This document shows, one piece after another, positions 19,479-19,789 of a stretch of 44,194 nucleotides of DNA (positions are counted from its first letter, which is position 1; the number at the start of each line of letters is the position of its first letter). The notes under the pieces are model-generated. The model made no database searches. It saw only the letters and a program-made list of their open reading frames with translations, and had not been told where the DNA came from. The DNA is taken from the UHGV virus genome UHGV-0204589. One strand, given 5' to 3'. Both the position numbers and the translations under genes were made by a program. The stretch comes from a virus.

Positions 19479-19551
19479 CGGGAAATAGCTCAGTTGGTAG
19501 AGCAGCAGCCTTATAAGCTGTGTGTCAGAGGTTCGATTCCTCTTTTCCCAA
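19479..19551 (+). tRNA. tRNA, 73 nt, anticodon TAT by hand fold (Ile/AUA reader; one base from a CAT Met/Ile2 loop); position 1-72 C.A mismatch
   Basis: GCTCAGTTGGTAGAGC D-arm, GCAGC-CTTATAA-GCTGT anticodon arm, AGAGG-TTCGATT-CCTCT T-arm. Confidence 0.7.
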
Positions 19552-19700
19552 TCTAGTCGGGTCGCTCCCGGATGATGTGAGAGCACGCAGAATGCCTCAC
19601 AGAGAATGACAATGCCTGCTGAAAACTACTGCGATAGTTCCAGGGACTAGGACACGGGACTGAAATTCGCAGTGTGACAATCTAAGCAGGAACTGCATCA

Positions 19701-19789
19701 TGAGGATTCGCCAAGCGGTTAAGGCACCGGGTTTTGACCCCGGCAAAGAAGGAACACTCTTTACGCTGGTTCAAATCCAGCATCCTCAG
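19701..19789 (+). tRNA. type-II tRNA (long variable arm, G73 discriminator, Ser-like body) with anticodon TTG by hand fold (Gln codons), which is atypical
   Basis: acceptor TGAGGAT/ATCCTCA; D-arm GCC-AAGCGGTTAA-GGC; CCGGG-TTTTGAC-CCCGG; variable arm with 5-bp stem; GCTGG-TTCAAAT-CCAGC. Confidence 0.65.

Follow-up and report, generated by a model that had tools for sequence, protein, structure and literature searches.

Long variable arms on transfer RNAs (tRNAs) whose anticodons are foreign to Ser, Leu and Tyr are known from the allo-tRNAs of bacteria or phages (Mukai et al. 2017, PMC5389517), which have an 8/4 or 9/3 acceptor/T arrangement, a 12-bp branch and Ser (or Ala) identity. The nematode nev-tRNAs (PMC3333845, PMC4300185) combine a variable arm with a non-class-II anticodon (Gly or Ile(UAU)); these eukaryotic tRNAs descend from tRNA-Leu and are leucylated in vitro. 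Phage tRNAs which escape tRNA-cleaving defences (PMC10264068, PMC11464382, PMC11555353) are accessory, carry U34, vary among relatives and adjoin homing endonuclease genes, but they work via anticodon-loop or stem changes or via supply, and none of them uses an added variable arm. The present analysis deals with two tRNA genes of the virus genome UHGV-0204589 (44,194 nt, analysed as a whole and called the window below), namely a tRNA-Ile(UAU) with a C1.A72 mismatch and a tRNA with the Gln anticodon UUG and a long variable arm. The pair resembles the defence-escaping tRNAs in the features listed above. The UUG tRNA shares with the allo-tRNAs and the nev-tRNAs a long arm on an unexpected anticodon; it differs from the former in a 7/5 acceptor/T arrangement and in Gln identity nucleotides, and from the latter in being, as predicted here, a cognate Gln body with an added arm. 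On balance, the locus is probably best explained by an accessory tRNA-Ile with a private mismatch and an extra-arm tRNA-Gln, which would be charged with Gln and would belong to a phage-restricted population. The features concerned are as follows.

19479..19551, + strand: tRNA-Ile(UAU), 73 nt without CCA (ARAGORN; Rfam RF00005, 70.0 bits)
19550..19551, + strand: positions 72 and 73 of tRNA-Ile (alignment of relatives)
19701..19789, + strand: tRNA-Gln(UUG) with extra arm, 89 nt without CCA (ARAGORN; Rfam RF00005, 55.6 bits)
19744..19764, + strand: variable region of tRNA-Gln, 21 nt (ARAGORN drawing)

Exactly two tRNAs, both on the + strand, were called by ARAGORN in the whole window, and the Rfam tRNA model (gathering score 29) was concordant with these calls. 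The original prediction, folded by hand from the letters alone, had located the same two tRNAs, and its anticodons, the C1.A72 mismatch, the long variable arm and the D-arm and G73 of the second tRNA were all reproduced. Different anticodon registers giving ordinary isotypes were looked for, and none was offered by ARAGORN or Rfam. An intron, an allo-tRNA architecture and an alternative anticodon register were ruled out by the concordant folds. tRNA-Ile was placed by ARAGORN at 19478-19553 by adding an optional eighth pair, T-1:A73.

In tRNA-Gln, the 7-bp acceptor stem TGAGGAT/ATCCTCA gives U1-A72, G2-C71 and A3-U70 with G73 as the discriminator, and the remaining parts are a 3-bp D-stem (GCC/GGC) with the loop AAGCGGTTAA, the anticodon loop TTTTGAC (anticodon TTG at 19734-19736) and a 5-bp T-stem. 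The variable region, CAAAGAAGGAACACTCTTTAC, contains a hairpin with the stem AAAGA/TCTTT (5-6 bp) and the loop AGGAACAC. Because this region starts with CA and ends with C, as does the CAUUC of tRNA-Gln, and so retains C44/A45 and C48 of the normal Gln loop, the hairpin is assigned to the canonical 46/47 extra-arm site, which is the insertion site of the long arm in the class II tRNAs (Ser, Leu and Tyr) as well. The arm is treated as an insertion by the Rfam model, and a homologous arm is present in families A and B.

The canonical tRNA-Gln(UUG) (E. coli glnU/glnW and Firmicute) has in common with the window tRNA U1-A72, G2-C71, G73, G10, the UC-GCCAAGCGGU-AAGGC-A D-arm with a 3-bp stem, a CCGG-type anticodon stem, UUG with U33 and A37, and C44/A45...C48 around the variable region; E. 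coli glnU, for example, reads UGGGGUA-UC-GCCAAGCGGUAAGGC-A-CCGGU-UUUUGAU-ACCGG-CAUUC-... The window tRNA differs in its extra D-loop U, in A3-U70 and C38 instead of G3-C70 and U38, in that CCA is not encoded, and above all in the variable region, for which 21 nt with a hairpin were found in place of the 5 nt of the canonical form (4-5 nt being the short loop that marks class I tRNA-Gln). For comparisons of the core, the variable region was removed. Identity to E. coli glnU, glnV, serT, leuW and metT was then 81%, 76%, 72%, 61% and 54%, respectively, and the best/median identities to the 529 tRNAs of 120 phage loci were 0.84/0.76 for Gln, 0.70/0.59 for Ser, 0.69/0.62 for Glu and 0.59/0.54 for Leu. 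Eight of the ten bacterial Gln determinants (PMC9976931, Table 1) are present (G73, U1-A72, G2-C71, G10, U34, U35, G36 and A37), and the sequence of tRNA-Gln is 100% conserved across relatives whose flanks differ. By descent and identity elements, the second tRNA is thus predicted to be a glutamine tRNA with a hairpin inserted in its variable loop, and not a Ser-derived one. The label "Ser-like" given to it by the original prediction does not hold, since tRNA-Gln typically has the GCCAAGCGGT(T)AAGGC D-arm, U1-A72 and G73, and the core was nearest to tRNA-Gln in three comparisons; the fallback of that prediction, an unusual Gln tRNA, is the reading favoured by the evidence.

Extra-arm tRNA-Gln(UUG) genes were sought with a pattern composed of the Gln D-arm, the anticodon loop YTTTGA, the T-loop and a variable region of 13-36 nt. 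It was matched by 66 IMG/VR contigs, and 6 further UUG cases were obtained when the anticodon was relaxed. Among the 185,579 species genomes of GTDB, 13 contigs matched, 11 of them genuinely and all 11 phage-like, being contigs of gut Clostridia, Oscillospiraceae or Gastranaerophilaceae which are either phage-sized or provided with phage-type tRNA arrays and PHROG-matching flanks; L072 (Pseudomonas) and L073 (Oceanospirillaceae) were discarded, since their matches arose from normal tRNA-Gln genes in tandem. By a separate BLAST, an extra-arm tRNA-Gln was recovered from an unannotated GenBank scaffold of human faecal origin, the single case in the GenBank phage records. When two other extra-arm types were compared by BLAST with 50,697 GenBank phage records, only the 5' half of normal tRNA-Gln genes was matched, and the tRNA-Gln of Dulem virus 39 is a normal one of 74 nt. 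Because the same pattern with a normal-length variable loop gave at least 120 matches, the extra-arm forms are a minority of phage tRNA-Gln. They are essentially confined to phages and prophage-like contigs, which suggests a phage-specific benefit or a laxer constraint on accessory tRNAs. A literature search of incomplete coverage, by which novelty is left unproven, found neither extra-arm tRNA-Gln nor phage class I tRNAs with an extra arm described; the form is apparently an undescribed tRNA variant.

By sequence, the 24 distinct variable regions form at least 13 clusters unrelated to one another; all are hairpins of 3-7 bp and exceed their shuffles in stability (mean z -1.8, t-test p 5e-6). 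The cloverleaf cells of 25 distinct extra-arm tRNA-Gln are paired in 99.6%, and compensatory changes occur at 14 of the 20 pairs, an extent reached by none of 500 shuffles. The 1:72 pair in these 25 is U-A (21), A-U (2) or G.U (2), and in no case G-C or C-G. From these patterns, the extra-arm tRNA-Gln would be functional tRNA genes under selection, in which the weak first pair typical of tRNA-Gln is kept. In multi-tRNA phage arrays, the extra-arm tRNA occupies the Gln slot alongside separate tRNA-Ser genes. With an anticodon-free scan, the extra arm was also found on tRNAs with Cys, His, Ile, Asn, Trp, Asp, Lys, Pro and Thr anticodons, the discriminators being U73 in 4/4 for Cys, C73 for His, A73 in 6/7 for Ile, G73 in 3/4 for Asn and G73 in 2/2 for Trp. 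As the extra-arm tRNAs of other isotypes retain discriminators of their own, the gain of an arm is independent of isotype and uncoupled from G73.

Several further observations were made on unusual phage tRNAs. Extra-arm tRNAs with Asn, Ile(UAU), Cys, His, Ala, Asp, Trp, Lys, Glu, Pro and Arg anticodons are located on mostly large phage contigs (L292, L293, L307, L310, L312-L315, L318, L321, L322, L121, L042-L044 and L147), and most of them keep the discriminator of their own isotype. The converse is a 77-nt tRNA-Leu(UAA/UAG) without the extra arm, with a 5-nt variable loop and A73 retained (L070, 5425-5501; L074, 7446-7522; L176). The 182-kb 'Ruminococcus' contig L070 encodes a Gln-like amber suppressor, tRNA(CUA), which has U1-A72 and the D-arm GCCAAG...AAGGC, and one 74-nt tRNA body is combined with GCA (Cys) in L070 and with GUA (Tyr) in the related L074 (coordinates for these entries: L070, 2448-2526 and 6599-6672; L074, 6154-6227). 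In divergent family-A phages, an 82-nt tRNA-Tyr(GUA)-like gene lies 5 nt upstream of the extra-arm tRNA-Gln (L064, 6406-6487; L014, 1884-1965), with Rfam scores of 37.1 and 29.5 bits, respectively, and was not called by ARAGORN.

For the role of the pair, the following is proposed. The island ahead of the head-assembly genes would carry two accessory phage tRNA genes, the first of which would supply AUA decoding. The second would most likely be charged with Gln via the host, either by glutaminyl-tRNA synthetase (GlnRS) or by a non-discriminating glutamyl-tRNA synthetase (GluRS) together with the amidotransferase GatCAB, both routes being expected to recognise U1-A72 together with the anticodon; CAA and CAG would in that case be decoded by it as Gln. 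The class I enzymes GlnRS and GluRS reportedly approach the tRNA from the D-arm/minor-groove side, which is the face opposite the variable region, and leave that region solvent-exposed. Because of this exposure, of the arm independence of the leucyl-tRNA synthetase (LeuRS) and of the loss of the arm from some phage tRNA-Leu, the added arm is likely to be compatible with cognate charging. The arm of tRNA-Leu is not required by E. coli LeuRS, and the 1:72 pair is read by both the amidotransferase and GluRS2-type enzymes (PMC9976931). In the preferred interpretation, the arm would alter which other proteins bind tRNA-Gln and not its amino acid, for example by blocking a host tRNA-targeting nuclease or a modification or quality-control enzyme. 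That the arm is a phage-specific adaptation on cognate class I tRNAs (Gln; also Ile, Cys, Asn, His and Trp), by which a host nuclease, quality-control or modification enzyme is evaded or a dual Gln/Ser identity is acquired, is a tentative and rather unlikely proposal; if true, it would give phages a new structural way of manipulating translation. Targets complementary to the arm loop (GTGTTCCTT) were searched for in the window, and 12 matches were obtained vs 9.8 expected, without enrichment.

The tRNA-Ile part of the locus is ordinary. tRNA-Ile(UAU) exists in phages and in some bacteria, e.g. Mycoplasma mobile. The window copy has the anticodon loop CTTATAA (anticodon TAT at 19512-19514), and its acceptor stem CGGGAAA/TTTCCCA sets C1 opposite A72 with A73 as the discriminator. 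In common with known tRNA-Ile(UAU), its UAU would read AUA without lysidine, and A73, A37/A38 and U12-A23 are shared; unlike them, it has the private C1.A72 and is without C4-G69 and C29-G41 of the E. coli Ile set. From the bacterial Ile identity set (PMC9976931), A73, U12-A23, A35, U36, A37, A38 and U20 are present, and C4-G69, C29-G41, G16 and U21 are replaced by G4-C69, A29-U41, U16 and A21, respectively, these being determinants derived from E. coli from which the host may differ. The original prediction had expected this tRNA to read AUA directly, which agrees with codon usage: ATA accounts for 354 of the 875 Ile codons (40%; 29 per 1000 codons) in the open reading frames (ORFs) of the window, and ATA positions align to Ile or Val in homologues as other Ile codons do. 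The supply of AUA decoding, for a codon used heavily by the phage, is a simple rationale for the presence of tRNA-Ile.

The mismatch fares differently from the anticodon. It had been put forward as an unusual decoding feature, but all 13 other public copies of this tRNA have C1-G72. The window tRNA-Ile is 87% identical to the annotated tRNA-Ile of the [Ruminococcus] gnavus phage phiRgPS_6, which has C1-G72, and in an alignment of the island from 12 relatives G72 was found in 7/7 that have this tRNA-Ile. An 800-nt stretch of the window is 99.9% identical on the 44,420-nt contig L077 (binned as 'uncultured Dorea sp.') and on the IMG/VR contig L038, the only differences being position 19550 (G vs A in the window) and a one-base indel at 19551. 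Copies of tRNA-Ile were sought in IMG/VR and a metagenome collection with a pattern that left positions 72-75 free; the 13 copies found end in ...CCC-GATG (10) or ...CCC-GTC (3, with U73 as the discriminator), and the ...CCC-AATC ending of the window occurs in none of them. Since G72 is present in 13/13, the mismatch is private and not a family trait. It appears to be a recent G72A substitution, with a sequencing error less likely, and would have no functional design. Three 3' ends of tRNA-Ile (AATC, GATG and GTC; 19550-19553) are thus seen among phages ~99-100% identical across the surrounding 800 nt, which suggests a relaxed constraint or a local mutational hot spot.

A number of points weigh against an accessory, Gln-charged tRNA-Gln of the kind proposed. 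Two Gln determinants, G3-C70 and U38, are absent (A3-U70 and C38 are found instead); these two are specific to E. coli GlnRS, and C38 is the majority state in phage/Firmicute-type tRNA-Gln. Most of the tRNA sets were obtained with patterns in which the D-arm and the T-loop are fixed, as is the anticodon in the first scan, and some of the counts are biased by this. The capsid protein was used to sample the lineage: at least 594 IMG/VR contigs code for a relative, of which the best 80 (87-100% identity; L211-L290) were taken, and only 8 of these 80 members have the extra-arm tRNA-Gln, which makes it dispensable cargo. CAA makes up 36% of the Gln codons and 1/16 in the scaffold gene, and with this scarcity simple codon supply is a weak explanation for tRNA-Gln. 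The known tRNA nucleases which are sensitive to extra arms attack them and do not avoid them, and the nuclease-shield idea is an inference. Finally, six of the seven bacterial Ser determinants are present in tRNA-Gln (G73, G2-C71, G4-C69, C11-G24, G30-C40 and the long arm), and in family A the extra D-loop U (U20a; GGUUAAGG vs GGUAAGG) goes toward a Ser-type D-loop.

The last two points belong to an alternative which was raised by the original prediction. Seryl-tRNA synthetase (SerRS) ignores the anticodon and depends on the long arm and G73 (PMC9976931, PMC7609411), and bacterial Ser identity consists of G73, C72, G2-C71, R4-Y69, C11-G24, a large variable region and G30-C40 (PMC9976931). With its long arm and G73, tRNA-Gln might be a SerRS substrate and insert Ser at CAA/CAG, either exclusively or with a dual Gln/Ser identity, which is considered improbable. 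Variable-arm tRNAs with non-cognate anticodons provide precedents, namely the allo-tRNAs (PMC5389517) and the nematode nev-tRNAs (PMC3333845). The likeness to bacterial tRNA-Ser extends over the 3-bp D-stem, a similar D-arm sequence, G73, G2-C71, R4-Y69, C11-G24 and G30-C40. An ordinary tRNA-Gln already has a Ser-like D-arm and anticodon stem (serT being the closest non-Gln tRNA listed above for the core), and G73, G2-C71, R4-Y69, C11-G24 and G30-C40 occur in ordinary E. coli tRNA-Gln too, so that one arm and one base are all by which ordinary tRNA-Gln differs from the Ser set. That base is C72, which is absent from the window (A72): the 1:72 pair is U-A, A-U or G.U in 38/38 distinct extra-arm tRNA-Gln, in contrast to G1-C72 in 74/76 phage tRNA-Ser. 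The discriminators of extra-arm tRNA-Gln (G 30, A 6, U 2) resemble those of short-arm tRNA-Gln (G 86, A 22, U 4), whereas G is found in 73/76 tRNA-Ser, and the Gln anticodon and the Gln-like acceptor and T arms likewise separate the window tRNA from tRNA-Ser. The geometry of the arm is heterogeneous in extra-arm tRNA-Gln (3-7 bp with 1-5 unpaired bases 5' and 1-4 unpaired 3'). Phage tRNA-Ser mostly has 1 unpaired base, 5-6 bp, a loop of 4-6 nt and 1 unpaired base; the corresponding values of the window arm are 1, 5, 8 (or a bulged loop) and 2. The extra-arm tRNAs with U73 (Cys), C73 (His) and A73 (Ile) likewise count against any coupling of arm gain to Ser identity.

The coding sequences point the same way. 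In 26 window genes, CAA codons correspond to Gln in 65% of the homologous positions vs 57% for CAG, and to Ser in 4.7% vs 2.5% for CAG, the counts being non-independent. CAA thus appears still to behave as a Gln codon, with no sign of reassignment. Taken as sequence comparisons, these results argue against serylation as a selected function, and a low level of mis-serylation is conceivable, as six of the seven Ser determinants are provided.

The position of the tRNA genes was examined in the 80 lineage members. In the slot, which lies ~790 nt upstream of the capsid gene, 21 of the 80 have no tRNA, and the tRNAs other than the extra-arm tRNA-Gln are Met(CAU), Tyr, Ile(UAU), Asn, Thr, Ser, Val, Cys and a normal Gln(CUG). 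The slot behaves as an accessory island, and phage tRNAs countering tRNA-cleaving defences show a similar turnover beside HNH endonuclease genes (PMC10264068, PMC11464382, PMC11555353). The reading of the extra-arm tRNA-Gln as a constant tRNA upstream of the scaffold gene was rejected as a selection bias by the capsid sampling. One slot tRNA body (TGGAATGTAGCTCAGTGGTAGAGCAG..., U1.G72) was observed with the anticodons UAU, UGU and UAC, and 68-nt derivatives of it with GCA or GUA; acceptor mismatches or G33 were observed in several slot tRNA copies.

Such a slot could be read in another way, in which its tRNA-shaped genes would mainly be RNA-processing punctuation (RNase P/Z) or a head-operon mRNA leader rather than decoders and in which the arm, the mismatch and the drift of the discriminator would be tolerated. 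The hypervariability of the slot with its many isotypes and empty members, the single body with three anticodons, the copies with acceptor mismatches or G33, the three tRNA-Ile 3' ends in ~99% identical phages and the GP20-b leader motif, which begins 5 nt past the tRNA-Gln 3' end, are all consistent with this. The extra-arm tRNA-Gln, by contrast, folds as a perfect cloverleaf, has U33/A37 and the Gln identity nucleotides, shows strong compensatory covariation, is found in ordinary multi-tRNA arrays of large phages at a distance from scaffold genes, and is fully conserved among relatives while the flanks vary. Because of the intact identity set and the presence in ordinary arrays, a processing role is ranked lower for tRNA-Gln, and the explanation as a whole is judged to have only a small chance of being correct.

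It is very improbable that the arm blocks GatCAB (or GlnRS) and not the non-discriminating GluRS, by which Glu would be placed at Gln codons or a non-productive decoy would arise. The Firmicute-type features C38 and U1-A72 are present, and the supernumerary D-loop base, which family A possesses, is a GatCAB anti-determinant in tRNA-Glu. Mischarging by GluRS depends mainly on U34, and the amidotransferase reads U1-A72 (PMC9976931). The conserved U1-A72, however, implies ongoing selection for the amidotransferase/GlnRS step, and CAA aligns to Glu in 5.8% vs 5.5% for CAG. Glu-tRNA-Gln is moreover rejected by EF-Tu, which counts against this alternative.

C1.A72 with A73, as present in the window copy of tRNA-Ile, is a hallmark of the bacterial initiator tRNA, which further has the CAU anticodon, A11:U24 and three G-C pairs at the bottom of the anticodon stem. 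An initiator-like role at AUA codons is nevertheless effectively refuted by the comparative data and hardly credible: even though sister phages carry an initiator-like tRNA(CAU) in the same slot, the mismatch is found in none of the 13 other copies (C1-G72), the D-stem has C11-G24, the anticodon is UAU, the anticodon stem GCAGC/GCTGT is without three consecutive G-C pairs, and the body is that of an elongator, as seen from its likeness to phiRgPS_6 tRNA-Ile. The initiator-like tRNA(CAU) replaces tRNA-Ile in L001 (3508-3581) and in L017, L021, L023, L027, L031, L034-L036, L039, L050 and L053; its 1:72 mismatch is conserved (C1.A72 or G1.A72), A73 and A11:U24 are present, and at its lower end the anticodon stem has only two G-C pairs.

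The window is a temperate siphovirus genome of ~44 kb. Because of the near-identical Dorea contig and the match of tRNA-Ile to that of phiRgPS_6, the host is probably one of the gut Lachnospiraceae. The other features of the window are as follows.

3368-4414: second integrase-like ORF, upstream of the terminase gene
6085-7344: large terminase
7567-8994: portal
9297-12116: ORF of 939 aa between the portal and minor head protein genes, without a PHROG match
12103-13335: minor head protein
13332-13868, + strand: HNH endonuclease
17781..18812, - strand: HNH endonuclease ORF (PHROG 374, E 1.7e-96)
18893..19129, + strand: ORF of a small Cys-rich KTR protein (Pfam PF14205, E 1.6e-19)
19213..19299, + strand: RAGATH-21 RNA motif, upstream of the tRNA pair (Rfam RF03097, 79.7 bits vs gathering 70.3)
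19794..19858, + strand: GP20-b leader motif, before the scaffold gene (Rfam RF03003, 39.4 bits vs gathering 36.2)
19884..20507, + strand: head scaffolding protein gene (Pfam PF06810, E 1.2e-27; PHROG 194)
20507-21403: major head protein gene (PHROG 544)
25291-28104: tape measure
33094-33879: endolysin
34168-35256, - strand: integrase
36738-37484, - strand: CI-like repressor

The two tRNA genes lie within a non-coding island of ~750 nt, bordered by the KTR ORF and the scaffold gene, in which RAGATH-21 and GP20-b were also found by the Rfam scan; the KTR ORF, the two RNA motifs and the scaffold gene are the immediate neighbours of the pair. The placement "next to mobile HNH genes" is accordingly true in part: one HNH ORF is 666 nt upstream on the opposite strand, and the second is 5.6 kb upstream. 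The head module is split by ~6.5 kb (13332-19880) which contain the two HNH genes and small unknown ORFs. RAGATH-21 and GP20-b, both Rfam motifs, bracket the tRNA pair. RAGATH-21 also precedes the tRNA slot in L001 and in 6 of 13 related loci, and a literature search of incomplete coverage gave no description of its function; GP20-b is limited to close relatives and was seen in L011 and L024. The spacers 19300-19478 and 19552-19700 had folding z values of 0.0 and -1.8, respectively, with zero sub-threshold Rfam matches, and a promoter and terminator scan of 18700-20000 gave nothing exceeding expectation.

An arm on cognate class I tRNAs may mean a function in infection that is independent of isotype (defence evasion, stability or recognition by a phage factor), or a tolerated risk of mis-serylation. 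Both possibilities bear on the conflict between phage and host over tRNAs and on the design of orthogonal tRNAs.

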